NCBI GenBank assembly: GCA_000092065.1
Contig: CP000584.1
Length of the DNA: 64,000 nucleotides
Direction: 5' to 3' (one strand)
From: Ostreococcus lucimarinus
Taxonomy: Eukaryota
The notes beneath the pieces were generated by a model. It did not search any database. It saw nothing but the letters and a program-made list of their open reading frames with translations, and was not told where the DNA came from. How positions within the stretch are numbered: the stretch's first letter is position 1; every line of letters begins with the position of its first letter. Of this stretch, positions 25,015 through 40,352 are shown piece by piece. Both the position numbers and the translations under genes were made by a program.

Positions 25015-25120
25015 AACCTCGACGCGTCGATCGAACGATCGTCGAATCGCGCGATCGACCCATCTGGATCGCCGTCGGCGCCGACGTCACGCCCGGCGGC
25101 ACAGCGCGACGGACGACGCC

Positions 25121-25579: not shown

Positions 25580-27193
25580 GCGGTGACGATAGACGAGGCG
25601 ATGGATGGGATACCGGACGCGACCGCGGCGGCGGTGGATGGGGCGGCGGCGGCGGCGGTGGATGGGGCGGCGGCGGCGGCGGCGGACGGTTTTCGCGCGG
25701 GGAAGACTACGGCGGGACGTCGTTCGGGCGGCGAGACGATCGCGGGGGAGGAGGCGGAGGATGGGACACCGGACGGTCGCGATTCCGCAGAGAAGATAAC
25801 CCGTTCGCGCAAATGGAAGAGGAAGAAGCGGCGGCGGCGAGAAACGATCCTGACTCCGAGGCGACGAAGATGTTTACCGGCGAAAACACCGGTTTGGACT
25901 TTGACCTGTACGACGACATTCCCGTGGAGACGAGCGGACGCGACGTGCCGGAGCCCATCACTTCGTTCGTCGACCTCGACCTCGGGGCGGCCGTGAACAC
26001 GAACATCAAGAGATGCAAGTTTAAGAATCCGACGCCGGTGCAAAAGTACGCCATTCCAGCTTCGCTGGCGGGAAGAGATTTAATGGCGTGCGCGCAGACG
26101 GGTTCCGGTAAAACGGCGGCGTTTTGCTTTCCCATCATCGCCGGTATCTTGAAGCGCGGTCTTCAAGGCGGTCATATGAACCGCAAGACGTATCCTCTCG
26201 CGCTCGTGCTTTCGCCGACGCGCGAATTGGCGAGCCAGATTCACGAAGAATCGCGGAAGTTCGCGTACCAAACCGGCGTCGCCTCGTGCGTCATCTACGG
26301 TGGCGCTCCGGCGGTGGAACAATTCCGCGCCATGGAACGCGGGTGCGACATTCTCGTCGCCACGCCGGGTCGTTTGATCGATCTCATCGATCGCGCTAAG
26401 ATCTCGTTGAGCAGAGTTCAATATCTCGCGCTCGACGAGGCGGATCGCATGTTGGATATGGGTTTCGAGCCGCAAATTCGACAAATCGTCGACGAGCGCG
26501 ACATGCCGCGATGTGGCGAGCGTCAAACGATGTTGTTCTCCGCAACGTTCCCGAGGGAAATCCAGCGAATGGCTTCGGACTTCTTGGACGATTACGTCTT
26601 TCTCACGGTCGGTCGCGTCGGCTCTTCGCACGCGTTGATCACGCAATCCGTCGAGCGCGTGACTTCGTACCACGAAAAGAGCAATATGCTTCTCGATTTG
26701 GTCGAAGCCGTGCCGGGTTTGACTTTGGTTTTCGTCGAAACGAAGCGAGGTGCGGACCAGCTCGAGGATTTCTTGTACCAAAACGGTAAGCCCGCGACGA
26801 GCATCCACGGCGATCGCACGCAGCAGGAGCGCGAGGCGGCGTTGAAATCCTTCCGAGCGGGTAAGACGCCCATCCTCGTCGCCACGGACGTCGCGGCGAG
26901 AGGTTTGGATATTCCTCACGTCACCCACGTCATCAACTTTGACTTGCCATCGGATATCGACGACTACACGCACCGCATCGGTCGTACCGGGCGCGCGGGG
27001 AAGAAGGGTCGGGCGACGGCGCTGTTTTTAGAATCCAAAGACGGCCAAATGGCTCGCCCGTTGACGGAGCTCATGAGCGAGGCGAACCAGGAAGTGCCGA
27101 CGTGGTTGACGCAAATCTCTGGCCATTCCTTCGGCGGTGGTGGACGTCGTCGCGGTGGTGGTGGCGGGAATAGATTCGGCGGTCGCGACTACC

Positions 27194-27255: not shown

Positions 27256-27617
27256 ATCGACCCGCCTCGCGCGTTCGCGTTCCGAGTATGAAATCCTAGA
27301 TGTGTGCATCTGTTAGATGTTAGACATTCGTGTTGTGACTATTTTCTACACTATCCCACTACGCCATCACACGTCCCCTCGCGTCTCGGCCGCCGACAAA
27401 GACGACGAAGCCTCGACTCGACGAAAACGGTCCCGCGCCCGCCCCCCTCGCAAAAGATTCCTCTTCGGCACGCGTAGGAATAAAAAACCAAAATCACCCC
27501 GAAACCCCGTATACAACGTGAAACGAGTCGATGTACCGCGCACCCCATTTGTGCGACGGCGTCCCCCGCCTCGTCGTCGCGGCGTCGTCGTCGCGGCATC
27601 GCGCGACGCGTCGGACG

Positions 27618-27680
27618 ATGAAGTTCGGTCAGCTCTTCGCCGCGACGACGGCGTCGATGGCGCCGAACGTGCGAGAGCAG
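27618..27680 (+). CDS. SPX-domain protein, exon 1 (21 codons)
   Basis: MKFGQLFAATTASMAPNVREQ in the frame of track ORF 27531..28034. MKFG is the canonical SPX N-terminus. The exon ends at CAG|GTGCGC. Confidence 0.75.
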
Positions 27681-28020
27681 GTGCGCGACGCGAACGCGCG
27701 AGCGCCCGGAACGACGCGACGACGACCGCGCGAACGACGACCGCAAAACGGGGCGACGGGCGATGGCGCGGTAGAATATTCCCAGCGCGCGACCGTCGCG
27801 GAGGGGGGGGGAGGGCGCGCGTCGCGCGCGTCGCGCGCTCTAAAGAGAGACAAGAATGCGCGCGAAGGATGCGCGCGAGGACGCCGCGAATGGGGACGGT
27901 TCGCGCGCGATGGTGGGCGTCGAGCGCGCGAAGACGGCGAACGGAGGGCGGCGAGACGCGCGAACGACTCGAGGGCGTTGACTGACGGATTCACGCGATG
28001 CACGCGCGCGGGAAGCGTAG
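27681..28020 (+). other. Intron of the SPX gene (340 nt)
   Basis: Donor GTGCGC at 27681. GACTGAC at 27981-27986. Acceptor cgtAG at 28019-28020, 35 nt after the branch A. Phase 0. The spliced N-terminus MKFGQLFAATTASMAPNVREQFLDYKLLKQVLK aligns without gaps to the plant SPX consensus (MKFG..x17..FLxYKxLKKxLK). Confidence 0.75.
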
Positions 28021-28752
28021 TTTTTGGATTATAAACTCTTGAAACAGGTGTTAAAGACACTTCCGGAGAATAAGGGCGATGTGAAGCCCGCGACGGCGGG
28101 GGAGGTTCACGCGGGGGAGCGGGCATTCGTGCAGGCGCTGTCCAACGAGTTGAAGAAGTTTAACGAGTTCTTCATGAACAGAGAGGAGGAAATCGTCATG
28201 AAGGAGGGTCATTTGCAGCAGTTATTCGATCAGAACGAAGAGCGCATCGCGAGCGCGTTGAGCGCGGGGGTGTACGACGACGCGTGTTTGGCGGGAGACA
28301 CGGGCATTTGCCAGAAATTTGCCAACTTTCACGGAGAGCTCGTGTTGTTGGAGCACTGGACCAATTTAAACTACGCGGCTTTGGTGAAAATTTTGAAGAA
28401 GCACGATAAGCGATCGAGCTTGGCGCTGCGTTCTCCTTTCCTAGTCAACGTCCTGCAGCAGCCTTTCTACAGCACGGAGGTGCTCACGGCGATGATCGGT
28501 CGCGCCGAGGAGCGATTCCGCGCCATCGAGCACAGGATTCGAGAATTCTTGGGCGAGCACGTCCCGCGCGCTGAGCTCGGGACATCGCCGCAGGTGCAAC
28601 TGAGGGTATCATCGGACGGAAGCGAGATTAGCGACGACGACGACGACGCCTATTCCATCGAGCACACCAAAGCCGCTCTGAACTGCTGGCAAGGTTTGGA
28701 CAAGAGCGAGGCTTTGCAAAACCCGCTCGGCACGCCTCACGACGTTCAGTGA
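28021..28752 (+). CDS. SPX-domain protein, exon 2
   Basis: Track ORF 28024..28752 (TTG start in the track); the reading frame opens at 28021 (F). SPX strings LNYAALVKILKKHDKRS, FVQALSNELKKFNEFF. Confidence 0.85.
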   Translation, partial: FLDYKLLKQVLKTLPENKGDVKPATAGEVHAGERAFVQALSNELKKFNEFFMNREEEIVMKEGHLQQLFDQNEERIASALSAGVYDDACLAGDTGICQKFANFHGELVLLEHWTNLNYAALVKILKKHDKRSSLALRSPFLVNVLQQPFYSTEVLTAMIGRAEERFRAIEHRIREFLGEHVPRAELGTSPQVQLRVSSDGSEISDDDDDAYSIEHTKAALNCWQGLDKSEALQNPLGTPHDVQ

Positions 28753-29051
28753 AAACTTACGCACTAGTTTCTCGCACTCCCACCGCGCGTCGTGACATCT
28801 CGCGCGTGAATGACGCATATTACCCTAGCTCAGCCACACGTCTGGCTGACCACCATTCTTTCCTTGTTGTAAGCTTTTTTTGTTAACTTGGCCTCGAACC
28901 GTCTTGTCTCGCGCGCGCGCATCACGAGCCATTCATCCGCGCGTCGTCGGACCGATCGATCGGCGCCGAAGCGAAGGGACGCCACGCACTCACCTCCAGA
29001 GTCGAGACCGCGCGCGCGCGACATCGACGCGCGCTCGATACGACGGCGCAA

Positions 29052-31682
29052 ATGCGACTCCTCGACGGGTCGCCCTCGGCCCAATACGTCGTTTCACGCG
29101 AGCTCGTCGTTATGCTCGACGCGCCGCGCGCGGGCGTGCCTCGGCGCGTGCGCGAGCGATTCGAAAGTGCGAGCGAGACACATCCATCATCCAACGACGA
29201 ACGACGAGCGGTGTCGAACGAGCGCGACGTTGAGGTAGGCTGCGAGTCAAGATACGAACAGCCTTTTCTGACGACGCGACTCCATGAAACTGACGTGACT
29301 AACGACGTGACTGACGACGTGACTGACGACGCCTCGTCGCGTGAGCTGCAGATCGCTCGAGCATTTCTCGACGCACGGTTGAACGGTGAGCACGAATACG
29401 AAGGCTTTGAAGCGCTACTGTGCGACGAATCCGTGATCTCTCTGACGACGCGACTTCTCGCGCGCGTCGAAGAGCGCGGCGAAGCCAAATTTCCAGCGAA
29501 AATGGTTCTGAGCGCGTACATGATTTGCTACCACGCCGATGTGGTCCTCGGTGGTTCGAACGCGAAGGAGGTACCGTGCGAAGAAACGTCGCTCATTGAT
29601 TCATCCAAGGCGTTGGTTAACGCGTTCGACGCGCTCGCACTCACGATGTCGCGCTCGGGCACGTTCACAGCCACCATCACGAACGCGTTCGAGCGCGCTT
29701 GGCACACGTGGACTGCAGATTTCAAAATTTGGAAATCGAAAGACGCGTTTAGTTTGACCCAAGAGCTCATACGAATCGGTGTTGCGATGGAGTCTTCGAT
29801 GATTCGTGTGTGCGGCGCTCGCGGCGCGCTCGATTCCACAGTCGATCTCGGTGAAGAACGCAACGCGATACGCTCCGCACAATCGCACGATCGCGCGCTT
29901 CTAAGAGAGAAAGTCTTCACGCTTTCGGGTAAAAGCGCAGTCGACGAGTTCGATGCGATGATTACAAGAGTTCGAGCCGCGGGCTTAAGCGACGAAGAGT
30001 CAGCGAGGGCAAAGGATACTCGCACGGATCGGCTCGACGAACGTCGGCGTAAACGGGAAGCCACGAGCGCTCAAATCGCCGCTGCGATCGAAAAGGACAA
30101 AGAACGCGCTCGTCAGCAGATGGCTGGTGAAGAAAACGTTGTTTCGAACTTTGTCGAAATGCAAAAGGATCAGATTTTACACGAATTAATGCTGGACCCC
30201 GAGTGGAAGCTCAGAGCGCCACCAAAGTCACCCGTTGAGGACGATCCCGTACGCGAGCAGGTCGTACAAATCATGAAGAAGGCGTTCTGGGACATGGTGT
30301 ACGAATCACTTGTTCATGATACGATCGACACATCTATCGTTCGCGCTCGAATTTTCGAATGGAAAGACGCCATCATCGACGACACTTTGATTTTGGATCG
30401 CCAGACGACGGAGAGCTTGGAACTGATCCAAAATTCACTCAGCCTCATCGACGTCAACTATCTTGAAGCGAGCATCTTGCGCATGGAAAGCACACCTACA
30501 GACACATCAGAAGCTTTGCGAACCTCGCTCGATCATGGTTACACGGCTCTCAATGCGCTCGCGAATGGTTCCGTGAAGGACGATCTTAGCGCTGCGTTTG
30601 ACAATCTGACGCGAGAACTCGAGACGGCGACGAACGCGGACAAATTCACTTTATCTCGAGCGATTGCTGATGCTTTGGCGTTCTTGTTTGATTTTCGCGA
30701 GCGTATACACCAATCGATGAGCCTTGAAGCAGCCAACGAGGCGATTGATGCACTCCGCGAGACGCTCGCGGTGATGCCAGATGGCATCGAGTACGCGACA
30801 ACGCGCTTCTTGCATCGATTTGATGTGAAAGTCGGGGAGACCGAACTCGCACTTGCGTTTCCTCGCACGTGTGCTTGGCTTGAAAGCGTCGTCGAAGAGC
30901 TTCCGACGCTCGATGCGACATTTGCACCTCTTCTCGATTCTCTCAATGTCGACCGCTGGCGAGGCGTGCGTCTGAGGAGCGGTTTCGAGACTCGAGCCGA
31001 GGGCGCGCAAAAGACTTCTTCGGAAGTAATCAGTTCAACTTTACATCCGACCCGGGTCATGTCTGTGAATGGTGTTTGTCGTGTCGCCTTTGCACGATTG
31101 GTTACCAATCCCAACGCCATGATTCAAGACTTTATCCCGGAAACGCTTGAAAACGACGTGCAACGCATCGATTACTTTTGCCGTGAGTTTCAGAACATTC
31201 AAACGCTTGCCGCTTGTTTGATGCTCTCCACGCAACTCTGTCGCTTAGAGGTTTTCGTGGATGTGGACGCGCTCATCGATCGAGTCGCGGTTCTGCTCTC
31301 TTCGGAACGAGACCTACCGGCGATGTCTCGCGTCGCCGAGGTCCTCTCCGCGACGCTCCCGACGTCCGACGGCGCCCAAACCATCACCAACATGCTTCGC
31401 AAGCTCACGGGTTCCGACGATTGCGCCAATCCGATGTCTGTCGCCATCATCAAGGCCATACGATCCGCGCTCACGATTCGTCTCCTTCACGGCTTCGAAG
31501 GCGAAGCCGTTGATAGGGCGTGCGACGCCCGGCTCGCCGCAGTCTTCGCGTCGCGTCTCCGTCCTCGCGTCGACGCCATCGCTCGCGACGCCGCGCGAGT
31601 GATCAATCTACACGCCACAGTGCGCGCGCCCGTGGTTTCGGCCTTAGTGAACGACTTGCTCGCCAGAGATGATGAAATTTAA
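29052..31682 (+). CDS. T-complex-11 (TCP11)-like protein (tentative)
   Basis: Full 876-aa track ORF with ATG. Central strings QILHELMLDPEWKL and VREQVVQIMKKAFWDMVYESL resemble the TCP11 family. Otherwise helical and non-repetitive. A short 12-nt repeat encodes TDVTNDVTDDVTDD at ~29285-29335. Confidence 0.6.
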   Translation: MRLLDGSPSAQYVVSRELVVMLDAPRAGVPRRVRERFESASETHPSSNDERRAVSNERDVEVGCESRYEQPFLTTRLHETDVTNDVTDDVTDDASSRELQIARAFLDARLNGEHEYEGFEALLCDESVISLTTRLLARVEERGEAKFPAKMVLSAYMICYHADVVLGGSNAKEVPCEETSLIDSSKALVNAFDALALTMSRSGTFTATITNAFERAWHTWTADFKIWKSKDAFSLTQELIRIGVAMESSMIRVCGARGALDSTVDLGEERNAIRSAQSHDRALLREKVFTLSGKSAVDEFDAMITRVRAAGLSDEESARAKDTRTDRLDERRRKREATSAQIAAAIEKDKERARQQMAGEENVVSNFVEMQKDQILHELMLDPEWKLRAPPKSPVEDDPVREQVVQIMKKAFWDMVYESLVHDTIDTSIVRARIFEWKDAIIDDTLILDRQTTESLELIQNSLSLIDVNYLEASILRMESTPTDTSEALRTSLDHGYTALNALANGSVKDDLSAAFDNLTRELETATNADKFTLSRAIADALAFLFDFRERIHQSMSLEAANEAIDALRETLAVMPDGIEYATTRFLHRFDVKVGETELALAFPRTCAWLESVVEELPTLDATFAPLLDSLNVDRWRGVRLRSGFETRAEGAQKTSSEVISSTLHPTRVMSVNGVCRVAFARLVTNPNAMIQDFIPETLENDVQRIDYFCREFQNIQTLAACLMLSTQLCRLEVFVDVDALIDRVAVLLSSERDLPAMSRVAEVLSATLPTSDGAQTITNMLRKLTGSDDCANPMSVAIIKAIRSALTIRLLHGFEGEAVDRACDARLAAVFASRLRPRVDAIARDAARVINLHATVRAPVVSALVNDLLARDDEI

Positions 31683-31729
31683 CGCTCTTCTTCGCGAATC
31701 AGAGGCACCCGGCGCTTGAAGAATCTTCA

Positions 31730-34700
31730 ATGAAGATGAACCGCTTTTCCGTTGCCCACGCGTCAGAATTCTGCATTCAGCGACTCGCGCGGCGAGCACG
31801 CCGCGCTCGAAACGCCGCCAAGTTGTCGCAGGAGAACAACGATGTGTGCGCGCGCGACGAATCCACCGTCGCGCGCGACGAAGCGCGCCAAGGCCTGCTG
31901 TCGCTCGCGCGCGTCGCGAGTCGACGCGTCGATCGCTCGTTACGACGCATGCGCGCGTCAATCAGTCGTAGACGCTCCAACAAAGGAACGGATGGCGAAG
32001 CGTGCTTAGTTTTACACGGATGGCGAAGCAACGCCGACGTGAGCGCGCTGCATGCGCGAAGGTTGCGGCTTTTGAAGCGATTTAGAAAGGCGTCGTGCGT
32101 GAATGGCTCGGAGGAGGCGCCGCACGCGGCGGACGAGACGACGTCTGAATTAATCGATGGACCGTGGTTCTCCTGGGTCGACGACGCGAGTGATGATACG
32201 TTTGAAAATTTGGAAAGCGAGCGAGCGACGGCGTTAATGACGGCGGCGCGATCGGTGGCAAAGTTTGCCATCGAACACGGGCCGTTCAAGTGCGCGGTGG
32301 GATTTTCGCAAGGCGGCGCAATGATCACGTTGTTGTCCAACCCGCAGGTCTTAAGCATGCTGGGGATCGAAGGGGGCTATTTGTGGGACAGTGCGGTGAT
32401 TTGTTGCGGCGCGTCATCTTCATTGCTCGATCTCGCGGCGACGAAGTGGGGTATCGACGTGCGCTCGTCGGCGTCGCCGATGCCGTCGTTGCACGTGTTC
32501 GGTTTTCAAGACAAATTCAAACCACAAGGTGAAGTGCTCATGAATACGTTCCGTGCGTACGACAGCGAGGACCAATTGATCAGACACGCTCTGTATTTAG
32601 ACTGCGGTCACACGTTGCCGGCGTCGCTCGAGACGGACACTGGTTTTCACGCCGAATTCGACGCCTGGCTCGAGGCGGCGACCGAGGCGGCTCCCCGTCG
32701 TTACAGGTCAAACGAGTTCGATGAAGATGTTTTGTTCGACGACATCAAGTCGCTAGAGTATAAGTCGCTCAAGTTTAGTAATCAGCCCACCATCGAGCGC
32801 GCTGAGGCTGATATTGAGAGAGCAGAAGCGGAGGGCGCACGCGCCGCCCAAGCGACGACATTTGCTTCAGCCAGAACTCTCGCCCGAAACATCGATGTAA
32901 GCACCGCAACTGCGCCGAGCGGGAATGATCTCACGTTCAACACGCGCTGTGCGAGTTTGGTTCAGTGTAATGTGTCGCTAAAGTCAAGCAGAGTGAATAT
33001 TCTTGACTTTCTAGCGAGGGCGCCTCGAGCGTCTCCGCTTCTTCGAAGCTTGGACGGGGCAACATTGACGTACGGGCAAGCGATCGACTTCATAACAAAA
33101 GGGGACGGTGATTTACGTAAACTTGGGGCAGATTCGTCATCTGTTTTTGCGTATAATGTCCCTCCAGGCCCGGTCGGTGCGCTAGCTTTTCTCGCCGTCG
33201 CGTCGCAGTGCACCGCCGTCCCTTTGGACCCCGGCATCGCCGAGGAAGACGCCTACGAAGCCCTGACGTCGTGTCGAGTGTCAATGCTTGCGTTATTTCG
33301 AGGAACCGACACTGAAGCAATTGAAACGGCAGCTTCTCGAGCTCATATACCGATTAAATGGTTCGTGATGACGGAAGCTGATACTAAACTTGCCGGTTTG
33401 TACGCGCCGGAATCGTCTCAATCGTCAACGAGTGACGTCGCGCCGCTCGTACAATCGAGTGAAACGATCGGTCTTTTGCTTCGAACTTCTGGGACGACAT
33501 CCAAGTCAAAAGTTGTTCCGTTGGTTATCGGCGCGTTGACTTCAAACGGCGCTACGCTGGCGGCTTCTCTTGAACTCAAAGCTTCAGACGTTTGCATCAA
33601 CGCCATGCCTCTTTTTCACATCGGTGGCCTTTCGTGTTCCATCTTGGCGACGATCGCGGCGCACTCTTCTGTCATCTGCTGTCGTAAGTTTGACGCTCAA
33701 TCGTTTTATGACACCATTACGACGTCGCATGAAGTCAAACCGACGTGGTACTCAGCAATACCGACGATTCATTTGACAGTACTGCAATACGGTCAAGCTG
33801 TGGCTCGTGGCGCAAAGCCATCGCATGCTCTTCGTTTCATACGCTCTGGCGCGGCGGCGCTCAGCCATGCCGACGCAGAAAAGTTGCAACGATTTTGGGA
33901 CGTGCCGATAATACCGACGTATAGTATGAGTGAACAAATGCCGATCACTGGTAAAGGTGTCCACGTTCCGCTCGCCGAGCGTGCGGATACCGTGGGCCAG
34001 CCTCTCTGTTGTTCGTTTGCGCTCGTCGGTGATGGTCATTGCAGACTCACGGCACCTTTTGGACAGCAAGGTGAACTCGTCATCAGCGGTGATAACGTGA
34101 TGACGGCGTATCAAGATGCGGAAGAAGCTAACAATAAGACTTACTTCTACGTTGCCGATAAGCGTTACCTTCGCACTGGCGACATCGCAAAGATGGACCA
34201 CGATGGGTTTGTGTACTTGACTGGTCGTAGTAAGGAACTTATCAAGCGCGGGGGTGAGCAAGTGAGCCCATTAAAAGTCGAGGCTGTGCTCGTGCAGCAT
34301 CCATACGTGCGTGTTGCGGTAGTCTTCAGCGTTCCTTCGGCGCTTTGGGGAGAAGAAGTGGGCGCCGCGATCGTATTGACCGACGACTTTGATGGGCACG
34401 AAGACTCGGCGCTCTCTTCAATCAAGTCTTTCATGGGAACATCGAAAGAACTATCTCGATTTGAAATTCCTGTACACTGGAAATTTGTCGCTGACGAAGA
34501 TTTACCCAAAACATCGACGAAAAAGTATAAGCGTGCGGGTTTGGCCGAGATTTTAAACGTCGCGAAGAAAGTCGACGCGTGCACTTTGCGGCACTCTAAA
34601 AAGGTGACGACCCCGTCGCATGGTCTTGCAGGCTTGCGCTATTGTATGGCTGTAGGTGTGATGTTTAACCACATAGGTGCCATTTGGCAAGGCGAGGACG

Positions 34701-36391
34701 AACGTGATCCTTTGACGTATGGTCCAGCGTGGATGTCTGCCAAGGCGACGACGTTTTACTTTCCAGCGACAACTTTCTTTGTGCTGGGTGGCTTCACGCT
34801 CAGCGCCGCACTGAACGGCAAGGAAATCACAAAAGGAACATGGGGATCGTTCTATAATTCAAGGTTTCAAACACTCTTTCCTCTGTACTTGCTGTCTTTG
34901 TTTCTCGGTCTGATCAACGTCCTCGTGGTGTGTCGCCCGGAAACTTTTAGTAGCGAATTTAGCTGGCAACCACATAACGCAACGCTCACGCTCGACTCTG
35001 GGGCGTGGGCGCAATGCCAGACCGGTCCAGTGGAGATGCCCTACGGCGCTTGGCTCTTCATGACCCTCATCGTTTTCTCTTTCGGGTTGCAAACTTGGTT
35101 CCCGCTGTGGCTTCTCAGCTCGTGGTTCATGTACTACACGTGGTTCAACGGCGTTTACTATTTCATTATTCTCGTGTTTCCTTTCATGCACAACGCGCTC
35201 GCTCGCGTCAAAGGCGAATTCAAAGCCGTACTGAGATGGTTCATCGTTTACTGTGTCGGTACTCTTATCACCGCCGGGCTTTTGGGATTGTACTACGCCT
35301 TACCGGCGTGGGAAGAGCACGACGATGTCGCCAAAGTGAAGAGCTGGAAAGAAAATGTGCAGAACATCTACGCACTCAGCACAATGATGTTTCCGCCGTA
35401 TTGGGTGCCATGTGTCGGTACGGGTATGGCCGCATACTTTTGGTACGACGCCGTACGGCCAGTAGAGTCGCACAAGCGCGCGTTGTACGGCCACTGCGCC
35501 GATGTGCTCACGCTCGCATTTTTCGCCTTCCATCTCGCCCATTTCCTTGACATTGATTGGCCTTATCCGACCAACGTCACGGGCAAGATGTGGGAAGTTG
35601 TACCCGAAGAGCATCATCGCTGGGATACAGGCATCAATCGCTATGTATGGAGCGTCATGATCACTCGGTTGTATTCTCCGTTGATCGCCGTCTGGATCGC
35701 TCTGCTGTCGATACCGAAGGGCAGCCGAACGACTCGCCTTCTTGAATCAAACTTACTAAGCAAAGTGCTCGCCCCGACGAGTTATGGTTGCTTCTTGTTC
35801 CACCAGATCATTGGACAGTGGTATTGGTGGGCGACTCGTAATGGAAATGGCATCAAGACCGCAGACGTTGGCGACAAGACGTCGTGGATGTGGTGGGCGT
35901 ATCCGAAGGAATATTACTGGTTCTCGCCGCAGCCGTTACCTGTGGCGTGGTACGAGTTCTTCTTCATCGTCGGAATGACGACGTGCTTTTCGGCGGCGGT
36001 AGACAGGTGGCTCAATACTCCACTGACGGTGCTATGGATCAAGTTTATAACCTTCTTCCGGAATATTATATGGCCGAATTCGGCGAAGAGCGCGGAGACT
36101 TCGGGTAGCAGCGAGGAGTCGTCGCCTGAAGACGCGGTGATCAAAGCAGTCGCCGCGGTCACGGGCGTCGACGAACGAGTGTCTCTCGACGACTCCTTTG
36201 ATGAGATCGGTCTCGTTTCTGTCGGTCTGCCAGTGCTCGTGGGTATAATCAACGCCGGCGAACAATTCGCCGTCATCTCGGCTCAAGAAATAGCGACGTG
36301 CGCGAACCTTCGTGACGTCGTCAGAATAATCGCTTCCAAGCGTGAATCGGCTCGATCGAGTGTAGGGTTTGGAACTAGAAGCTCTCTGTAA
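31730..36391 (+). CDS. Four-module fusion protein: FSH1-type serine hydrolase + ANL adenylating ligase + acyltransferase-3 membrane domain + carrier-protein-like C-terminus
   Basis: Uninterrupted 1,553-aa track ORF (alternative ATG 31949). Hydrolase ~32000-32645: LVLHGW, GFSQGG, GFQDKF, DCGHTLP. Ligase ~33017-34564: LLRTSGTTSKSKVVPL, TWYSAIPTIH, LRFIRSGAAALS, TGDIAKMDHDGFVYLTGRSKELIKRGGEQVSP, PKTSTKKYKR. AT3 ~34619-36049: GLAGLRYCMAVGVMFNH plus about 10-12 hydrophobic helices. Carrier-like ~36119-36349: VSLDDSFDEIGLVSVGLPVLVGII. Confidence 0.85.
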   Translation: MKMNRFSVAHASEFCIQRLARRARRARNAAKLSQENNDVCARDESTVARDEARQGLLSLARVASRRVDRSLRRMRASISRRRSNKGTDGEACLVLHGWRSNADVSALHARRLRLLKRFRKASCVNGSEEAPHAADETTSELIDGPWFSWVDDASDDTFENLESERATALMTAARSVAKFAIEHGPFKCAVGFSQGGAMITLLSNPQVLSMLGIEGGYLWDSAVICCGASSSLLDLAATKWGIDVRSSASPMPSLHVFGFQDKFKPQGEVLMNTFRAYDSEDQLIRHALYLDCGHTLPASLETDTGFHAEFDAWLEAATEAAPRRYRSNEFDEDVLFDDIKSLEYKSLKFSNQPTIERAEADIERAEAEGARAAQATTFASARTLARNIDVSTATAPSGNDLTFNTRCASLVQCNVSLKSSRVNILDFLARAPRASPLLRSLDGATLTYGQAIDFITKGDGDLRKLGADSSSVFAYNVPPGPVGALAFLAVASQCTAVPLDPGIAEEDAYEALTSCRVSMLALFRGTDTEAIETAASRAHIPIKWFVMTEADTKLAGLYAPESSQSSTSDVAPLVQSSETIGLLLRTSGTTSKSKVVPLVIGALTSNGATLAASLELKASDVCINAMPLFHIGGLSCSILATIAAHSSVICCRKFDAQSFYDTITTSHEVKPTWYSAIPTIHLTVLQYGQAVARGAKPSHALRFIRSGAAALSHADAEKLQRFWDVPIIPTYSMSEQMPITGKGVHVPLAERADTVGQPLCCSFALVGDGHCRLTAPFGQQGELVISGDNVMTAYQDAEEANNKTYFYVADKRYLRTGDIAKMDHDGFVYLTGRSKELIKRGGEQVSPLKVEAVLVQHPYVRVAVVFSVPSALWGEEVGAAIVLTDDFDGHEDSALSSIKSFMGTSKELSRFEIPVHWKFVADEDLPKTSTKKYKRAGLAEILNVAKKVDACTLRHSKKVTTPSHGLAGLRYCMAVGVMFNHIGAIWQGEDERDPLTYGPAWMSAKATTFYFPATTFFVLGGFTLSAALNGKEITKGTWGSFYNSRFQTLFPLYLLSLFLGLINVLVVCRPETFSSEFSWQPHNATLTLDSGAWAQCQTGPVEMPYGAWLFMTLIVFSFGLQTWFPLWLLSSWFMYYTWFNGVYYFIILVFPFMHNALARVKGEFKAVLRWFIVYCVGTLITAGLLGLYYALPAWEEHDDVAKVKSWKENVQNIYALSTMMFPPYWVPCVGTGMAAYFWYDAVRPVESHKRALYGHCADVLTLAFFAFHLAHFLDIDWPYPTNVTGKMWEVVPEEHHRWDTGINRYVWSVMITRLYSPLIAVWIALLSIPKGSRTTRLLESNLLSKVLAPTSYGCFLFHQIIGQWYWWATRNGNGIKTADVGDKTSWMWWAYPKEYYWFSPQPLPVAWYEFFFIVGMTTCFSAAVDRWLNTPLTVLWIKFITFFRNIIWPNSAKSAETSGSSEESSPEDAVIKAVAAVTGVDERVSLDDSFDEIGLVSVGLPVLVGIINAGEQFAVISAQEIATCANLRDVVRIIASKRESARSSVGFGTRSSL

Positions 36392-36524
36392 TAAGTTATC
36401 ACACGCTAAGCATCATCGTCACTCAAACGACGACGAGTTGCGTATCCTCTCCTTGTGCTCGTGCGCCTCGCGTCCGAGGAAAACCTTTGCTCGACTGATT
36501 CAGTCACGTCACAACCCAGACGCC

Positions 36525-36662
36525 ATGAACTCGATCAAGCGTGCGATCGCGCGCGTGCTGGCGTCAGACGAGTTACACTACGCCATCATCCCCGTCATCA
36601 TCATCGTCGGTATGAACACGACGCCGAAACCGAGCATTTTGTCGCTCTTGACGCCGATTTAG
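36525..36662 (+). CDS. TOM7: Mitochondrial import receptor subunit TOM7-like mini-protein (45 aa)
   Basis: ATG at 36525 inside track ORF 36369..36662. MNSIKRAIARVLASDELHYAIIPVIIIVGMNTTPKPSILSLLTPI resembles TOM7 (HYGxIPxVxYLG...PxxLxLLxP). Confidence 0.55.
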   Translation: MNSIKRAIARVLASDELHYAIIPVIIIVGMNTTPKPSILSLLTPI

Positions 36663-36763
36663 ACGAGTGTAGAGATCTAGAGATTAGCAACGAACGAACG
36701 CATCGACCGCGACACGGATACGAGTGTAATGAAAACGAAGTGGTTTGTTACAAGTTGCGCGTT

Positions 36764-38398
36764 TTAGCTTCGCTCGCGCAGGCGTCGATCAAAGTCGGAG
36801 AGGTCGTAATCATCGCCGGCGCCCTCGTTGGACGTGTACACGGCGTCACCCACGACGCGCTGGGACGCAGCTGAGCTCGCGGCGGCGAGCTTGGCGGCTA
36901 AACGAGGCTCTGGACTCGCGATACGGCGAGCTGCGAGCAATCGAGAGTTATTGCGAGCATCGATTTCCCGGTTCTTGCCTTGGTTGCGGAAATAGCGCAA
37001 CAGCGGAACGACGAAGAATAATACGCCGTAGCTCAGTAAACCGGGGAGCAAGCCCGAGAAGGCGCGCGCCAACTCCACGTACTCTCGGGTGCGGTACATG
37101 ATTTGCGGGTCGTTAATCATCTGCGCCAAAATCACCACCCCCACTAAGTTCGCAACGCCGAGTAAACCCGCTTGAATCTTTTGCGACGGCTCGGCGAGCG
37201 AAAACACCCATCGCTCCTCTTGCGCCAACGCCTCACTTTCGCCTCTACTTCGCGCCGTTGTTTTTCCAGCGGTGGACTCCATGTTAGGAAATCGATAAAT
37301 GATCGATCCTGTGACGGTATTCACCTCTGGCGTGCCCTCGAAGCGGGTGAGCGCGGGCAAGACAAAGGACTCGTCTTCGTATCCCGCCGTGTCCAGAAAC
37401 GGCGCCAACTGCTCCGCCGTCACAACGCCCTTATTCTTTTGAATCAAGCGTCCAACCAACTCCCAACGCCGCTTTTCGAAATCCAAGTTCGGATCGCCGT
37501 CGCCGAAAACAAAACTGAAGACAGCCTCAAAAAAGTTCATCTCTCTGTCGCGTCTTCGCGGTCGGCGATAGTAGTACGGATCCCAATACCAAAACAAATC
37601 AAACGGCGAAATGTAAAAGCGCGGCCCAGCGAAGCCACCACCGCGCCGATCTGAACGATCGTCACTACTCTTGGCGCTCATGAGGGCGAAGATGGCGGTG
37701 TAGACAATCATCACGCTCGCCACGAGCGACGTTCCAAACGCCACGCGAAAAACGTACGAAGCTAAGCTTTTCGCCCCGCTCACGATCGGTTCGATCTTCA
37801 TCTTGAACGATTTCGAGCTCAAAATCCCTCGTGTCGACCTGGGAAACACGTATGTGAGATCGCCCGCGCTGGATACTTCCAAAGTCGCTCCTGTGTCCGC
37901 CGCCAGCGCGTTGAGCGCCTTTTGCGTCTCGAACACGCTCGCCCCCGAAATCGAGCTCACGTCCCCCACAGTGGCGCGATACTGCGCCTTCTCGATCGCT
38001 TTAAGTGTTTTTTCGCGCAATTCAGCGTTCAAATCATCGCTCTCCACGCGTCCTCCCGGGGCGACGGCGAGCTTGTCGTCCTCCGCGAGCGCGCTCTCGC
38101 GAGGCAGGTCCAACTCGACTCGATCGTCGTAGTCCCATCCTCCTCGCGCGCGCGTCGTCACCGCTCCATCGCGCGCGCGCGCGAAGCGCGTCTTTCGCGC
38201 GACGCGCCCGTCCTCAGCGCGCGTCGCCGCGTCGCTCGCCCGCGCGCGCGACCTCGTCGGCGTCATCTTGGACGACGCGCGAACGACGACGACGACGACG
38301 CGCGGCGACGACGACGACGCGCGCGCTCGAACGGCGCCGACCGCGAGCGGCGGCATCGCGCGCGAGTTGTGCGTCGTCGGCACCGCGGTGGCGCGCAT
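36764..38398 (-). CDS. Conserved plastid-lineage membrane protein (function unknown) with a transit-peptide-like N-terminus
   Basis: ATG at 38398 (MRATAVPTTHNSRAMPPLAVGAVRARASSSS) within track ORF 36764..38497(-). The motif NFFEAVFSFVFGDGDPN and several TM helices are, from memory, typical of a cyanobacterial/plant protein family. The assignment is tentative. Confidence 0.7.
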   Translation of the reverse strand: MRATAVPTTHNSRAMPPLAVGAVRARASSSSPRVVVVVVRASSKMTPTRSRARASDAATRAEDGRVARKTRFARARDGAVTTRARGGWDYDDRVELDLPRESALAEDDKLAVAPGGRVESDDLNAELREKTLKAIEKAQYRATVGDVSSISGASVFETQKALNALAADTGATLEVSSAGDLTYVFPRSTRGILSSKSFKMKIEPIVSGAKSLASYVFRVAFGTSLVASVMIVYTAIFALMSAKSSDDRSDRRGGGFAGPRFYISPFDLFWYWDPYYYRRPRRRDREMNFFEAVFSFVFGDGDPNLDFEKRRWELVGRLIQKNKGVVTAEQLAPFLDTAGYEDESFVLPALTRFEGTPEVNTVTGSIIYRFPNMESTAGKTTARSRGESEALAQEERWVFSLAEPSQKIQAGLLGVANLVGVVILAQMINDPQIMYRTREYVELARAFSGLLPGLLSYGVLFFVVPLLRYFRNQGKNREIDARNNSRLLAARRIASPEPRLAAKLAAASSAASQRVVGDAVYTSNEGAGDDYDLSDFDRRLRERS

Positions 38399-38486
38399 GT
38401 CGATCGAAGCGAAGGGCGCGTCGTGAGATGACGCGATGCGACGCGAAGGACGAGCGAGCGACAGTGCGAGACGCGCGACGCGCGCG

Positions 38487-40352
38487 ATGTCTCGCAAGGG
38501 CGGATGGGGACGCGGGGACGAGGATGATTATTACGACGATTACGACGACGACGAGGCGTACGACGACGACGACGAGGCGTACGACGACGACGACGAAGCC
38601 GCAGGCGCCGGGCGCGAGGCCCTCGAGCGAGCCGAGGATGGCGAGCGCGCGACGACGGGCGCGAGGGCGGCGAAGACGAGCAAGGCGATGGAGTTGATGA
38701 AGACGAAACCGACGCCCACGCGCGTGGGGATGAAAGAGATCGAGGCGCGGATGGCGGCGGAGAGAAACGCGAGGTATCCCGCGGCGCCGCGCGGGCCGAG
38801 CGGAGGCGGCGCGAGCGCGGGGAAGTTTGCGTTCGATACGCCTTCACCGGACGCGGCAGCGGCGGCGGCGCGAGCGCGGGGGAGTAAGTCTGGGGCGAGC
38901 GCGGCGATGGAAACGACGGAAACGCTCGTGAAAGAATTTGCGGCCAAGACGCGAGTCGGCGGCGACGCGACCGCGTTTGCGGGATACGAAGCTTCGAGCG
39001 CCGAGCGCGCGGCGTACACCTCACCGGAGGGCGGTGACGTGCACGTCGTGATATTAGGACACGTTGATGCGGGGAAATCGACGCTTAGTGGGCGATTGAT
39101 GTACGCTTTGAAAGCGGTCGATGACAGAGCGATGCATAAAAACGTGCGCGATTCCAAGGCGAGCGGGAAATCGTCGTTCGCCTGGGCTTGGGTGATGGAC
39201 TGTAGACCGGAAGAACGAGAGCGCGGGGTGACGATAGACGTCAGCATGAAGCGATGTGTGTTAGATGGACATCGACAGTTGGTAGTTTTAGATGCTCCTG
39301 GGCACAAAGATTTCGTGCCGAACGCGATTTCCGGCGCGTCGCAAGCCGACGCGGGCGTTTTGGTCATTGACGGCGCGATGGGTGGATTTGAAAACGGTTT
39401 CGCTGCGACTCCAGGTCACACGGGACAAACGCGCGAGCACGCGCGATTGGCGCGGGCGCTTGGTTTACATTCCCTCATCGTCGTCATCAATAAGATGGAC
39501 TGCGTTGAGTATGGAGAGGAGCGATTTAGATTTGTCGTCGATGCGCTTCAAAACTTTCTCATCGACGACGTCGGTTTTAGCCAAGAACAGCTCACGTTCG
39601 TGCCGGTTTCGGGGATTGAGGGTACAAATATTTCGCCCGATGACGCGGCTGCATTGCCCGATGCATTGGCCTCGTGGTATCGAGGCCCGACGCTCGTAGA
39701 CGCGTTGCGAGCGGTTAAAATTCCATCTCGAGGAGCGCCGAAACCGCTTCGCATGCCAATCGCAGACATCATCACCGAAGTGCGCTCTCTCGGTGGAGCC
39801 GCGTGCGGTGGTAAGATCGAAGCTGGAAGCTTGATGAAAGGTCAAAAGCTACTCGTGATGCCGGCCAACGTTTCGGCCACTGTGAAGTGCGTGGAAGTGG
39901 ACGGAATAGCCGTCGACTTTGCGCCGATTGGCACATCCGTGGACGTCGGCTTGAGCGACGTGGATTCGCGGCATTTAGAAGTCGGGAGCGTTTTATGCCA
40001 TGCGTCGCATCCAATAACGCCCACGGATGAGATTGAAGTCCGTGTGCTCACGACGGACATGCTTCGTGTGCCTTTACTCAAAGGCTCAAGGGTTGTTTTG
40101 CATTCGCACATGCTCGCGTGCGACGCAACGATTGAGGAACTCGTCGCGCAAGTGGACACGGTGACGGGAGACGTGGTAAAGGCAAGTCCTCGGTGTATTA
40201 CGCGCGAACAGAGCGCTATTTTGCGTATTCGCACGTCTAGGAATATTTGCGTCGAACCGGTCGAGATTTCACCGACGTTAAGCCGCGTGACGCTTCGCAT
40301 GAATGGCAAAACCATGGCGCTCGGTGTGGTGACTGCGATTTGGCGCTCTTAG
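38487..40352 (+). CDS. HBS1: HBS1/eRF3-family translational GTPase (HBS1-like)
   Basis: ATG at 38487 (MSRKGGWGRGDEDDYYDDYDDDEAYDDDD) within track ORF 38436..40352. G1 GHVDAGKST, G2 RGVTID, G3 DAPGHKDF, G4 NKMD, GQTREHARLARALG. EF-Tu-like domains II/III follow. Confidence 0.85.
   Translation: MSRKGGWGRGDEDDYYDDYDDDEAYDDDDEAYDDDDEAAGAGREALERAEDGERATTGARAAKTSKAMELMKTKPTPTRVGMKEIEARMAAERNARYPAAPRGPSGGGASAGKFAFDTPSPDAAAAAARARGSKSGASAAMETTETLVKEFAAKTRVGGDATAFAGYEASSAERAAYTSPEGGDVHVVILGHVDAGKSTLSGRLMYALKAVDDRAMHKNVRDSKASGKSSFAWAWVMDCRPEERERGVTIDVSMKRCVLDGHRQLVVLDAPGHKDFVPNAISGASQADAGVLVIDGAMGGFENGFAATPGHTGQTREHARLARALGLHSLIVVINKMDCVEYGEERFRFVVDALQNFLIDDVGFSQEQLTFVPVSGIEGTNISPDDAAALPDALASWYRGPTLVDALRAVKIPSRGAPKPLRMPIADIITEVRSLGGAACGGKIEAGSLMKGQKLLVMPANVSATVKCVEVDGIAVDFAPIGTSVDVGLSDVDSRHLEVGSVLCHASHPITPTDEIEVRVLTTDMLRVPLLKGSRVVLHSHMLACDATIEELVAQVDTVTGDVVKASPRCITREQSAILRIRTSRNICVEPVEISPTLSRVTLRMNGKTMALGVVTAIWRS

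Follow-up and report, generated by a model that had tools for sequence, protein, structure and literature searches.

The base composition of this 64-kb Ostreococcus window, the whole stretch of DNA analysed here (about 31 genes of a compact genome; mean G+C 0.599, CpG o/e 1.69), is a mosaic of CpG-packed islands, found at nearly every gene start, embedded in gene bodies that have about 54-57% GC. Two effects account for the mosaic: a 5'-to-3' fall within genes and a regional lowering of GC at silent sites. What sets the two compartments apart is chiefly CpG density, and less G+C per se. An earlier note had described, by eye, long genes that looked markedly less GC-rich than the patches around them, and computed GC and GC3 values bear this mosaic out. 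Four long genes have G+C contents of 0.54-0.57, whereas the eight patches named in that note lie between 0.68 and 0.76 (2000-4600, 0.684; 7300-7800, 0.715; 9200-9700, 0.752; 11600-12700, 0.756; 16700-17500, 0.697; 23200-25800, 0.709; 38100-38900, 0.718; 41500-42000, 0.703). Computed gene by gene, GC3 is 0.71-0.84 in the majority of the remaining genes. The standard deviation of GC among 500-bp windows, 0.0625, is 2.9 times the binomial expectation of 0.0219.

Segmentation identified 16 islands of 468-2540 bp, with GC of 0.64-0.745 and CpG o/e of 1.78-2.07, inside which about 40-50% of all bases sit in CpG dinucleotides. By Gardiner-Garden & Frommer-type rules a CpG island has a minimum size of 200-500 bp, a minimum G+C of 0.5-0.55 and a minimum CpG o/e of 0.6, and all 16 segments qualify in size, G+C and CpG o/e. 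They are as follows.

1840..2725: divergent starts of G1 (-) and G2 (+); GC 0.691, CpG o/e 1.88
3732..4668: start of G4 (RING gene), with tandem-repeat arrays at 4246-4575; GC 0.745, CpG o/e 1.82
7149..7898: divergent starts of G5 (kinase, -) and G6 (+), with a (GAC)n array at 7552-7645; GC 0.705, CpG o/e 2.07
8883..9851: starts of G7 (methyltransferase, -) and G7b (TMEM33-like, +); GC 0.714
11547..12782: start of G8 (CtpA-like S41 peptidase, -) plus the 720-nt spacer upstream of it, where GC peaks for the whole window; GC 0.736
13834..14554: start of G9 (APE/ExoIII, -); GC 0.660
16874..17771: divergent starts of G10 (ORC1-like, -) and G11 (+), where GC skew flips sign; GC 0.702
18895..19527: start of G12 (ataxin-2-like, +), tandem promoter; GC 0.706, CpG o/e 1.96
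20570..21111: start of G13 (PrmA, +), tandem promoter; GC 0.690
23205..25744: the largest (2.5 kb), with the starts of G14 (-) and of a possible G15 (24158-25063, -; putative coding, no Pfam match) and the DNA upstream of G16 (+); GC 0.711, CpG o/e 1.94
27506..27973: start of G17 (SPX-domain gene, +); GC 0.707
38041..38966: divergent starts of G20 (-) and G21 (HBS1-like, +); GC 0.713
41316..42128: divergent starts of G22 (-) and G23 (DUF4336, +); GC 0.694
43464..44213: weaker island, start of G24 (coiled-coil gene, +); GC 0.657, CpG o/e 2.00
48291..49644: start of G25 (HCNGP, -) and putative DNMT5 exon 1 (49244-49630, +); GC 0.639
62176..62650: weak island, divergent starts of G30 (-) and G31 (+); GC 0.657

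The islands are tied to gene starts. With start codons taken as a proxy for transcription starts, every one of the 16 islands holds a start codon, and together they contain 26 of 31 starts, versus 5 of 30 stops, a result equalled in none of 5000 circular shifts; five of the 31 start codons have no island. GC in 250-bp windows is correlated with distance to the nearest start codon (rho = -0.60, matched in 0 of 2000 circular shifts) and shows no relation to stop codons in the same windows (rho = -0.05). The GC-extreme patches thus do lie at gene 5' ends and promoters, as had been proposed. Their assignment to bidirectional promoters held in part, since tandem promoters are equally peaked (0.224 vs 0.234 CpG/nt). 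Each island begins in the upstream spacer and extends about 600-900 nt into the coding sequence, its edges coinciding with transcription-unit borders. Where promoters are in tandem, CpG peaks in the spacer and in the coding sequence that follows it, and the 3' end of the upstream gene is flat at 0.13-0.15 CpG/nt. GC3 declines from 0.79 at the ATG to 0.62 within about 900 nt (regression term t = 8-10), and the baseline is regained about 700-900 nt past the ATG. Two further observations of the earlier note also stood. In the patches, Tandem Repeats Finder reports arrays built of (GAC/ACG/CGA)n, (CGC/GCG)n and CGCGACG-type units, and the patches are indeed the source of spurious reading frames: among non-genic ORFs 250 aa or longer, 25 of 29 span a start codon or lie within 500 nt of one.

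The islands are specific to CpG. Four-fold sites that cannot form CpG have a GC3 of 0.632 in the 5' zone and 0.590 in the body (p = 0.07), whereas CpG-capable four-fold sites rise from 0.69-0.71 in the body to 0.81-0.89 in the 5' zone. Two related Ostreococcus species, for which genes were called independently, gave the same result: the 5' and body values are 0.531 vs 0.546 and 0.629 vs 0.580 at CpG-neutral sites, and 0.73 vs 0.58 (p = 2e-10) and 0.83 vs 0.60 (p = 7e-31) at CpG-capable sites. From GC-rich to GC-poor windows CpG o/e falls from 1.83 to 1.49 and TpG/CpA o/e rises from 0.62 to 0.98, and GpC o/e is constant at 1.17. Gene bodies have a CpG o/e of about 1.4-1.5. The peak is not a codon effect, because non-coding upstream spacers reach a CpG o/e of 1.8-2.1. 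The 5' coding sequence is enriched for the CpG-bearing codons GCG, ACG, TCG and CCG. Silent sites of the 5' zone also carry an excess of G on the sense strand (G3 0.53-0.56 vs C3 0.24-0.28); GGGG runs number 95 and CCCC runs 7, the purine skew begins near the ATG, and the sense-strand skew is +0.2 between +200 and +500 and about zero in non-coding upstream spacers. CpG density in gene bodies varies periodically, repeating about every 195 bp (z = 4.7, reached by 1% of null runs), which hints at a nucleosome-scale signal.

The region that first drew attention, 29052-36391, and the long genes can be understood from the positions of the islands. The features concerned are these.

27974..38040: about 10 kb free of islands, including the whole of 29052-36391; GC profile 0.50-0.61
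29052..31682, +: G18, TCP11-like (Pfam Tcp11, E = 1.4e-20); GC 0.557, GC3 0.618
31730..36391, +: G19, fusion of FSH1, AMP-binding, AMP-binding_C and Acyl_transf_3 modules (Pfam); GC 0.541, GC3 0.611
43766-47887, +: G24, coiled-coil gene; GC 0.567, GC3 0.627
49645..62175: island-free stretch of about 12.5 kb by segmentation, holding the DNMT5 body, G27, G28, G29 and the G30 body
49788..56348, +: DNMT5 (C5-methylase, SNF2, RING and Helicase_C by Pfam); GC 0.549, GC3 0.655

The first stretch is body-type all along because neither G18 nor G19 has a 5' island: the G18 start lies outside every island, and the G19 ATG follows the G18 stop by 47 nt, with no island. Pfam backs the labels TCP11, four-module fusion and DNMT5 that these genes had been given from their translations; the label "GT2-like", given to another gene, has no Pfam support. 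The contrast between long genes and patches is real, but length is not its cause. In a regression with ATG distance and region fitted, gene length had no independent effect (t = 0.7), and the short genes G27, G29 and G30 are as GC3-poor as the long ones (GC3 of 0.60-0.66 for the short genes in 49645..62175). Long genes look GC-poor merely because most of their length falls past the island. The second effect is regional. Past about 28.8 kb silent-site GC drops, in short genes too, and in the right half of the window it is lower by about 0.06-0.1. By regression the difference between left and right is confined to GC3 (-0.095, t = -8.8), with GC1 and GC2 unaffected, and it includes CpG-neutral sites, as a shift in generic GC. 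This layer has a cause separate from that of the islands, for which regional conversion bias or expression could be candidates.

Comparison with related Ostreococcus species indicates that the pattern is stable. Islands at orthologous promoters are conserved in position and strength among species whose silent sites are saturated; for example, the G20/G21 peak is kept in L006 (0.72-0.73) and L004 (0.66). The TCP11, fusion, coiled-coil and DNMT5 genes are syntenic and similar in composition in the relatives, and the G18 orthologues are equally GC3-poor (0.585 in L006, 0.583 in L004). The exception to synteny is the fusion gene: it has an O. tauri orthologue of 68% identity, and contigs L004/L005, which are O. 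mediterraneus-like, lack it at the syntenic position. Methyltransf_16 is the sole gene whose position changed between species, and its GC3 went from 0.60 to 0.80 in the new context. The coiled-coil orthologue in L006 has a divergent promoter and a stronger peak (5' GC3 0.84, vs 0.70 here). Island strength thus depends on genomic context rather than on gene identity.

The anatomy of the islands, their specificity for CpG, their tie to gene starts and their conservation across species are all direct observations. We give about even chances to one mechanism behind them, namely that DNMT5 methylates the genome and the islands are zones, akin to CpG islands, that stay free of 5-methylcytosine. In this proposal the direction of causation and the methylation state of the 16 islands are taken from literature on related strains. 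In accounts that relay Huff & Zilberman 2014, enzymes of the DNMT5 class methylate linker CpGs in prasinophyte gene bodies (PMC5082852, PMC12633428), and the DNMT5 gene in the window is, by enzyme class, a candidate actor in the mosaic. Prasinophyte gene 5' ends lack 5mC, which begins at about the third linker and continues beyond it (PMC12695648, PMC12633428); in Micromonas and Ostreococcus the 5' ends carry 6mA, followed by 5mC (PMC12695648). Ostreococcus genomes as a whole are reported to be rich in CpG, and a promoter with its first two or three nucleosomes is reported to bear 6mA/H3K4me3 in place of 5mC. DNMT5 would methylate the CpGs of nucleosome linkers in gene bodies. Unmethylated 5' CpGs would persist at a level fixed by genome-wide CpG pressure, and methylated body CpGs would decay faster to TpG/CpA, leaving less CpG and therefore lower G+C. 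A coding filter would make the sense strand of the 5' coding sequence G- and purine-loaded, with non-coding spacers remaining strand-symmetric. The return of CpG to baseline 700-900 nt from the ATG agrees both with 5mC reportedly setting in from the third linker onward (PMC12633428) and with the 6mA-to-5mC handover (PMC12695648).

In favour of this mechanism, O. tauri mutation-accumulation lines have a GC-to-AT bias in coding regions that is absent from intergenic regions (PMC5455958), and prasinophyte genomes are enriched in CpG despite high 5mCG (PMC12695648, PMC11884799). Against it, no hypermutability of 5mC was seen in Prasinoderma, and it has been argued that DNMT5 methylation does not necessarily raise cytosine mutability (PMC11884799). 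In a comparison of very low power (about 217 SNPs from 21 metagenomic haplotypes, the minor allele being counted as derived), 5' zones and bodies showed no difference in CpG loss, at 0.0036 and 0.0038 per CpG base. Bodies keep a CpG o/e of about 1.4-1.5, and therefore a CpG-favouring force is still required; that force might itself be stronger at 5' ends, and causality could also run in reverse, with CpG density excluding methylation. Loss of CpG from bodies does not account for the G excess on the 5' sense strand.

The earlier note had offered promoter-centred biased gene conversion as a cause. Meiotic breaks in nucleosome-free promoters, with heteroduplex repair that favours G/C, would build GC and CpG peaks, and in a conjectural variant thymine glycosylase would repair T:G mismatches at CpG in favour of CpG alleles. 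The GC content of O. tauri, 0.59, is far over its mutational equilibrium of 0.37 (PMC5455958). [quoted passage not shown] In the window, GC3 is a little higher at 3' ends pointing towards a promoter downstream (+0.04 vs -0.05), and in the right-half sample 17 of 43 S-to-W variants are singletons, compared with 6 of 33 W-to-S variants. With all SNPs pooled, however, the singleton asymmetry is 37/71 vs 25/62 (p = 0.22; alleles unpolarised, haplotypes being metagenome consensus sequences), and coding diversity is equal in the GC-richer and GC-poorer halves. A generic W-to-S bias should lift CpG-neutral four-fold sites, which show no lift in three species, and the rise in CpG density is not symmetric, as the gene upstream has no share in it at its 3' end. 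Conversion is therefore rather unlikely as the source of the islands, where it would have a minor part at most, although a bias specific to CpG is conceivable; the regional shift, in which CpG-neutral sites take part, is compatible with conversion. Direct selection for CpG-dense, G-skewed DNA 3' of the start is also unlikely. Such DNA is proposed as a platform that recruits readers of unmethylated CpG/H3K4me3, forms R-loops or positions the first nucleosomes, and a very large algal population would let weak selection hold the islands, even at the price of reshaping N-terminal protein sequence. Selection would suit the conservation of orthologous islands despite saturated silent sites, their respect for transcription-unit borders, the sense-strand G-runs and purine skew, the near saturation of CpG-capable four-fold sites in the left half (93% G/C) and the otherwise unexplained genome-wide CpG excess (PMC12695648). 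But five genes manage without an island, spacers have no skew, so that the skew is perhaps only a coding filter, and any stable chromatin-linked mutational regime also predicts conservation.

Relaxed constraint with replication slippage, by which CpG pressure and repeat expansion would act only in weakly constrained sequence (spacers, UTRs, disordered N-terminal tails, transit peptides) and be resisted by domain-coding bodies, is quite unlikely. It agrees with the abundance of (ACG/CGA/GAC)n, (GCG)n and CGCGACG arrays in the islands, with Pfam domains that begin well past the ATG in many genes, with the enrichment of 5' zones in Arg, Ala, Asp and Gly, and with the metagenomic contig breaks and clustered indels in GC-rich patches. 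It sits poorly with synonymous four-fold sites that depend on position within the same codon families (although sites in repeat units are not independent), with 3' ends and 3' spacers that are not CpG-rich, and with the existence of genes without an island. Expression-linked translational codon bias, the second cause suggested earlier, would give G/C-ending codons to short, highly expressed genes and deny them to long, weakly expressed ones. Codon bias does grow with expression in O. tauri, where almost all optimal codons end in G/C (PMC3673656), and the shift between left and right involves GC3 only. At the 5' ends, however, GC1, GC2 and GC3 all rise, as does GC in non-coding DNA; the use of GGT, optimal in O. 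tauri (PMC3673656), falls there from 0.32 to 0.15 (p = 8e-9), and C-ending Ala and Thr codons become fewer (GCC from 0.24 to 0.11, ACC also down). CCC, reported as non-optimal, is if anything commoner in the half richer in GC (0.24 vs 0.16, p = 0.08), gene length has no independent effect, and the GC3 of the relocated gene moved with its context. As the shift is neither confined to synonymous sites nor directed towards optimal codons, we rejected translational selection for the 5' peaks and regard it as very improbable. The last suggestion, a different evolutionary origin of the long genes, whether foreign or from a low-GC outlier-chromosome region, is hardly credible. The fusion gene alone has a restricted distribution: full-length copies are limited to Ostreococcus-like clusters (61% identity or more), the adenylation module most resembles bacterial NRPS domains (about 30-36% identity), and it is absent from the O. 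mediterraneus-like site. The TCP11, DNMT5 and coiled-coil genes are ordinary eukaryotic genes in conserved synteny. The long genes share the composition of their short neighbours G27-G30, which speaks against a horizontally acquired gene or island. Their ORFs are long and unbroken, whereas the low-GC outlier regions described for Mamiellales are rich in introns and transposons (PMC8557840, PMC5498103). At 61-72% protein identity between species a foreign compositional signature would have faded.

Several known systems resemble the mosaic in part. The Mamiellales have low-GC regions, namely the mating-type region and a small outlier chromosome (PMC8557840, PMC5498103), with GC and GC3 under the genome level in the same algal group. 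Those regions extend over hundreds of kb in which recombination is suppressed, and they hold transposons, lineage-specific genes and many introns, whereas here 10-12 kb of ordinary, syntenic, intron-poor genes lie between islands; with such short stretches, long ORFs and synteny in three species, an outlier region of this kind (a sharp 9-17% GC drop) was rejected. The GC3 gradient of grasses and other plants, ascribed to recombination-linked GC-biased gene conversion (PMC5460877, PMC4316631), likewise falls monotonically from the start codon over several hundred nt, with short genes GC-richer than long ones and conservation between species. The gradient described here differs in resting almost wholly on CpG-forming sites, CpG-neutral four-fold sites being flat, and in ending at the border of the upstream gene and not being symmetric about the promoter. 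Vertebrates also have a GC peak near most gene starts, the origin of which is debated among recombination, mutation and selection (PMC11323403); the lineage and methylation system are different, and the Ostreococcus peak appears to be stably maintained across species. In invertebrate gene-body methylation, as outlined in PMC12695648, methylated bodies have a lower CpG o/e than unmethylated sequence of the same genome, as would be the case here, but that outline concerns contrast between genes and true CpG depletion, whereas the present contrast is within genes and both compartments exceed a CpG o/e of 1.

Under the methylation model the islands would be analogues of vertebrate CpG islands. Differences are evident. 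Bulk CpG o/e is about 1.5 in Ostreococcus and about 0.2 in vertebrates, so that the islands are an excess without a CpG-depleted background; their CpG density is about twice that of the vertebrate islands; they lie mostly in coding sequence, with tiny spacers, and alter N-terminal amino-acid composition; DNMT5 acting on nucleosome linkers would take the place of DNMT1/3; and the skew is missing from non-coding spacers. Nonetheless, as in vertebrate CpG-island promoters, discrete, GC-rich, CpG-dense segments of 0.5-2.5 kb sit on the starts of most but not all genes, with bidirectional promoters sharing one island. They reach into the early part of the gene, where the sense strand has a positive GC skew that may come from a coding filter or, as in the R-loop class, from transcription, and, if the literature on related strains applies, they would form a 5mC-free, H3K4me3-marked zone beside methylated bodies.

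The window has a G+C content of 59.9% and no Ns, and it carries about 31 genes (G1-G31, numbered along it) that are tightly packed and mostly intron-free; their assignment draws on ORFs, a scan of codon scores and Pfam. Pfam agreed with the labels that an earlier note had given to the genes for TCP11, the FSH1/AMP-binding/AMP-binding_C/Acyl_transf_3 fusion and DNMT5 (methylase, SNF2, RING and helicase C), and returned no match for the "GT2-like" ORF. Many marine metagenome contigs encode proteins with 99-100% identity to the HBS1-like protein (38436-40352), whose identity to a cluster that includes an Ostreococcus mediterraneus protein is 67%. O. tauri has an annotated orthologue of the fusion gene (68% identity). 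These identities place the window in an Ostreococcus species distinct from both O. tauri and O. mediterraneus. Neither the TCP11 protein nor the isochorismatase protein had a match in exact look-ups.

The compositional mosaic that the earlier note described by eye is confirmed and sharpened by measurement. Between 500-bp windows GC varies with a standard deviation of 2.9 times that expected from a binomial. The eight patches singled out as GC-extreme have GC contents of 0.68-0.76, compared with 0.54-0.57 for the long genes, and GC3, calculated per gene, is lower in the long genes (0.61-0.66) than in most others (0.71-0.84). The proposed coincidence of the patches with gene 5' ends also held: the GC of 250-bp windows drops with distance to the nearest start codon (rho = -0.60, a value reached in 0 of 2000 circular shifts), and in the same windows distance to stop codons bears no relation to GC. 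(GAC/ACG/CGA)n, (GCG/CGC)n and CGCGACG-type arrays are abundant in the patches. The patches do yield spurious ORFs, as had been supposed: 29 non-genic ORFs reach a length of 250 aa, and 25 of them lie on or beside a start codon.

CpG-dense segments, here called islands, were delimited blind to gene models as sequence with at least 0.18 CpG per nucleotide in 300 bp. The 16 islands found range from 0.47 to 2.5 kb in length, from 0.64 to 0.745 in GC and from 1.78 to 2.07 in CpG observed/expected ratio (o/e), and cover 23% of the window. None of the 16 lacks a start codon. Together they take in 26 of the 31 starts and 5 of the 30 stops, a result that 0 of 5000 circular shifts matched. The starts that lack an island are those of the TCP11-like gene, the fusion gene, G27, G28 and G29. 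Because the first two are island-free, the interval 29052-36391 falls in the first of the following stretches.

27974-38040, island-free stretch of 10 kb, which holds 29052-36391
49645-62175, second island-free stretch

At tandem promoters CpG density peaks between -200 and +200 of the ATG, has fallen to baseline by some 400 nt upstream and some 700 nt downstream, and is flat across the 3' end of the upstream gene. Peak height is equal at divergent and tandem promoters (CpG/nt 0.234 vs 0.224). The possibility that the flagged interval belongs to a low-GC outlier-chromosome region was rejected; the low-GC stretches are segments of 10-12 kb between islands, with uninterrupted ORFs and conserved synteny.

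Distance from the start and region both shape composition. In the metagene profile GC declines from 5' to 3' over about 900 nt at every codon position (GC3 0.79 to 0.62, GC2 0.59 to 0.44, GC1 0.67 to 0.59). A regression of GC3 in 150-nt bins on distance, region and log gene length required a term for distance (t about 8) and one for region, by which GC3 is lower by 0.095 beyond 28.8 kb (t = -8.8). Log gene length had no effect once these two were fitted (t = 0.7), and the short right-half genes G27, G29 and G30 have GC3 as low as the long genes; gene length as the cause of low GC is thereby ruled out. The regional term is visible at third positions only, where it affects CpG-neutral and CpG-capable silent sites alike.

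The 5' peaks are specific to CpG. Across the window as a whole CpG o/e stands at 1.69; the GC-richest quarter has 1.83 and the poorest 1.49, and the TpG/CpA o/e moves in the opposite direction (0.62 in the GC-richest quarter vs 0.98 in the GC-poorest) while GpC stays constant at 1.17. Within the first 450 nt of coding sequence synonymous usage shifts towards NCG codons (GCG 0.81 vs 0.48, ACG 0.83 vs 0.52) and C-ending codons drop (GCC 0.11 vs 0.24). The decisive test is the comparison of four-fold sites. Those that cannot be part of a CpG have a GC3 of 0.632 within 600 nt of the start, compared with 0.590 at more than 900 nt from it (p = 0.07), whereas CpG-capable sites rise from 0.69-0.71 in gene bodies to 0.81-0.89 in 5' zones. 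On orthologous contigs of two other Ostreococcus species, each with its own independent gene calls, the 5'/body values are 0.53/0.55 and 0.63/0.58 at CpG-neutral sites versus 0.73/0.58 and 0.83/0.60 at CpG-capable sites. Non-coding upstream spacers have a CpG o/e of 1.8-2.1, indicating that codon selection is not the source. At window level GC correlates with CpG-embedded bases at r = 0.94, but the slope is largely what a constant CpG o/e predicts, and we therefore do not base the claim on this correlation.

The peaks are also asymmetric between strands. On the sense strand of the 5' coding zone G rises to 0.379 from 0.295 and C is unchanged (0.271 vs 0.267); ACGACG occurs 157 times and its complement 29 times, and at four-fold sites G3 is 0.53-0.56 and C3 0.24-0.28. 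The skew starts near the ATG and is maximal at +200 to +500. Non-coding spacers of known orientation have none (-0.01), and we therefore take a coding filter to be the main reason for the asymmetry: on the sense strand (ACG)n encodes Thr/Arg/Asp and (GCG)n Ala/Arg/Gly, and their complements Val/Ser/Arg and Arg/Ala/Pro. Transcription-coupled asymmetry, which might produce a sense-strand excess of G, is not supported, given the unskewed spacers and an excess of A over T rather than of T over A, but may still contribute.

Prasinophyte genomes are CpG-enriched in spite of high 5mCG (PMC12695648, PMC11884799). Methylation of gene-body linker CpGs is attributed to DNMT5 (PMC5082852, PMC12633428), and 6mA is reported at gene 5' ends, with 5mC increasing as 6mA declines, around the third linker and onwards (PMC12695648, PMC12633428). 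Mutation-accumulation lines of O. tauri display a GC-to-AT bias in coding, not intergenic, regions (PMC5455958); hypermutability of 5mC is unproven in these algae (PMC11884799). The length scale of the peaks, their CpG specificity, the reciprocal behaviour of TpG/CpA and the halting of the peaks at transcription-unit borders fit an arrangement that we infer, in which the islands would be CpG-island-like zones free of 5mC, beside methylated bodies that would lose CpG faster. This mechanism leaves the genome-wide CpG excess unexplained.

CpG density in gene bodies is periodic, repeating about every 190-195 bp; the periodogram peak has z = 4.7 relative to codon shuffles, and 1% of null runs attain such a maximum. 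CpG autocorrelation has bumps near 200, 390 and 585 nt. The sample comprised the bodies of the TCP11-like, fusion, coiled-coil and ORC1-like genes and of G26, G1 and G30 (e.g. 32630-36391, 44666-47887 and 50688-56348). A period of about 195 bp is on the scale of the nucleosome repeat and is consistent with linker-specific CpG methylation by DNMT5. A DNMT5 gene lies within the window itself (49244-49630 and 49788-56348, + strand), its short, GC-rich putative first exon inside an island, and this enzyme, of a class thought to write gene-body methylation, may be a shaper of the mosaic. An apparent structural variant of the gene on the contigs L010, L012 and L013 was ruled out, as the alignment is gap-free and the gene calls alone differ. 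Window-wide, the ApT o/e is 1.17 over the initial 600 nt of coding sequences and 0.96 in bodies, though the 5' zones are poorer in A/T; the excess is of interest in view of reports that genes of these algae carry 6mA at ApT in their 5' ends.

About 217 SNPs came from same-species metagenomic haplotypes at 10 loci near HBS1 and another 10 near ORC1. They are unpolarised and give almost no power for the comparison of CpG loss per CpG base, which is 0.0036 in 5' zones and 0.0038 in bodies. The S-to-W and W-to-S frequency spectra do not differ significantly in this underpowered sample (p = 0.22), and coding diversity, likewise underpowered, is equal in the two halves of the window. Alignment artefacts account for many of the apparent S<>S "SNPs" in repeats of non-coding sequence.

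Composition tracks context rather than gene identity. The island between G20 and the HBS1-like gene is kept at orthologous loci, with a GC of 0.72-0.73 in L006 (a contig of a 68%-identity species) and 0.66 in L004 (O. mediterraneus-like), and the weak 5' ends of the TCP11 and fusion genes are likewise kept at these loci. The Methyltransf_16 gene has a GC3 of 0.80 in L006, where it sits beside a divergent promoter, versus 0.60 in the window, and the 5' peak of the coiled-coil gene is 0.84 where it is divergently arranged, versus 0.70. These two relocations between species hint that a head-to-head arrangement strengthens the peak.

Of the interpretations offered by the earlier note, the siting at 5' ends and promoters stood. 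A foreign origin of the long genes is contradicted by synteny and by a composition common to their neighbours; a restricted distribution is seen for the fusion gene only. Translational selection, the expression-linked codon bias of the note, is contradicted as the cause of the peaks because GC1, GC2 and the spacers rise too and because GGT, GCC and ACC run against it (PMC3673656). Generic GC-biased gene conversion, though well motivated for Ostreococcus (PMC5455958, PMC5498103), fails both the CpG-neutral-site test and the symmetry test at the islands; conversion bias could nonetheless cause the regional GC3 shift. Possible explanations of the islands include conversion that favours CpG in particular, selection acting directly for a CpG-dense platform at the 5' end, and relaxed constraint combined with repeat slippage. 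We hold it rather unlikely, if worth stating, that the islands are no passive by-product and instead are a selected, CpG-saturated, G-skewed platform or the product of CpG-specific conversion bias. On that reading the platform would define, in a genome without room for real promoter regions, where each transcription unit begins, with that start free of methylation and marked by 6mA/H3K4me3, and its strength would suffice to dictate N-terminal amino-acid composition.

Several observations concern gene content and arrangement. The fusion gene (31730-36391) and the small Tom7-like gene that follows it are missing from the syntenic site in the O. mediterraneus-like contigs L004/L005 (7753-8152) and present in another relative (L006, 3428-8017). 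Full-length homologues of the fusion gene come only from Ostreococcus-like clusters at 61% identity or more, and its adenylation module is nearest to bacterial NRPS domains (about 30-36% identity). G11 (17289-18974, + strand), which is kept on same-species contigs, has a weak match, just below the Pfam cut-off, to the tyrosine-recombinase family "Phage_integrase" (E = 7e-6) and may be a domesticated or Crypton-like recombinase. The stop codons of convergent genes are as little as 18 nt (40353-40370) and 34 nt (47888-47921) apart, with AT-rich spacers (GC 0.22-0.24), implying overlapping 3' UTRs or shared terminators. In divergent pairs the first in-frame ATGs are 26-48 nt apart (2496-2543, 7265-7290, 38399-38435), and those of G22 and G23 overlap by 65 nt (41560-41624); either the opposing 5' UTRs overlap, each on its own strand, or the true start of some of these genes is a downstream ATG within an island. 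Start codons made uncertain by islands are an annotation problem, as are the long spurious ORFs that islands give.

Many same-species metagenome contigs (L016-L024) end in or beside islands, at about 11.7-12.2 kb and 19.2-20.9 kb. Contigs are far shorter over the island-dense left half, and indels and spurious S<>S "SNPs" concentrate in island repeats, indicating that islands are hazards for assembly and alignment. On the same-species contig L017 (1-2289, against about 24788-27000 of the window), RNase_T and AAA genes replace the DEAD-box gene beyond the 23.2-25.7 kb island, either because the island was the site of a real rearrangement or because its low-complexity repeats led to a chimeric assembly.

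The GC content of Ostreococcus and its relatives is far above mutational equilibrium, which is usually ascribed to GC-biased gene conversion. Fine-scale GC variation here and in two related species comes almost wholly from differences in CpG density that are linked to gene starts, which points to CpG- and methylation-linked dynamics. If a selected platform or CpG-specific conversion were indeed the cause, the GC content of these algae would be ruled mainly by CpG dynamics and not by generic GC-biased gene conversion. The contrast of CpG-neutral with CpG-capable silent sites offers a simple genome-wide test, and Arg/Ala/Asp/Gly-rich N-terminal tails may be driven by DNA composition. Drawn from one window and two syntenic loci, the claim is suggestive, and much of its background has been published before. 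The feature is an Ostreococcus instance of promoter-proximal CpG islands and 5' compositional gradients, from the known examples of which it differs in its CpG-rich background, in its mostly coding location and in being specific to CpG rather than general to GC.
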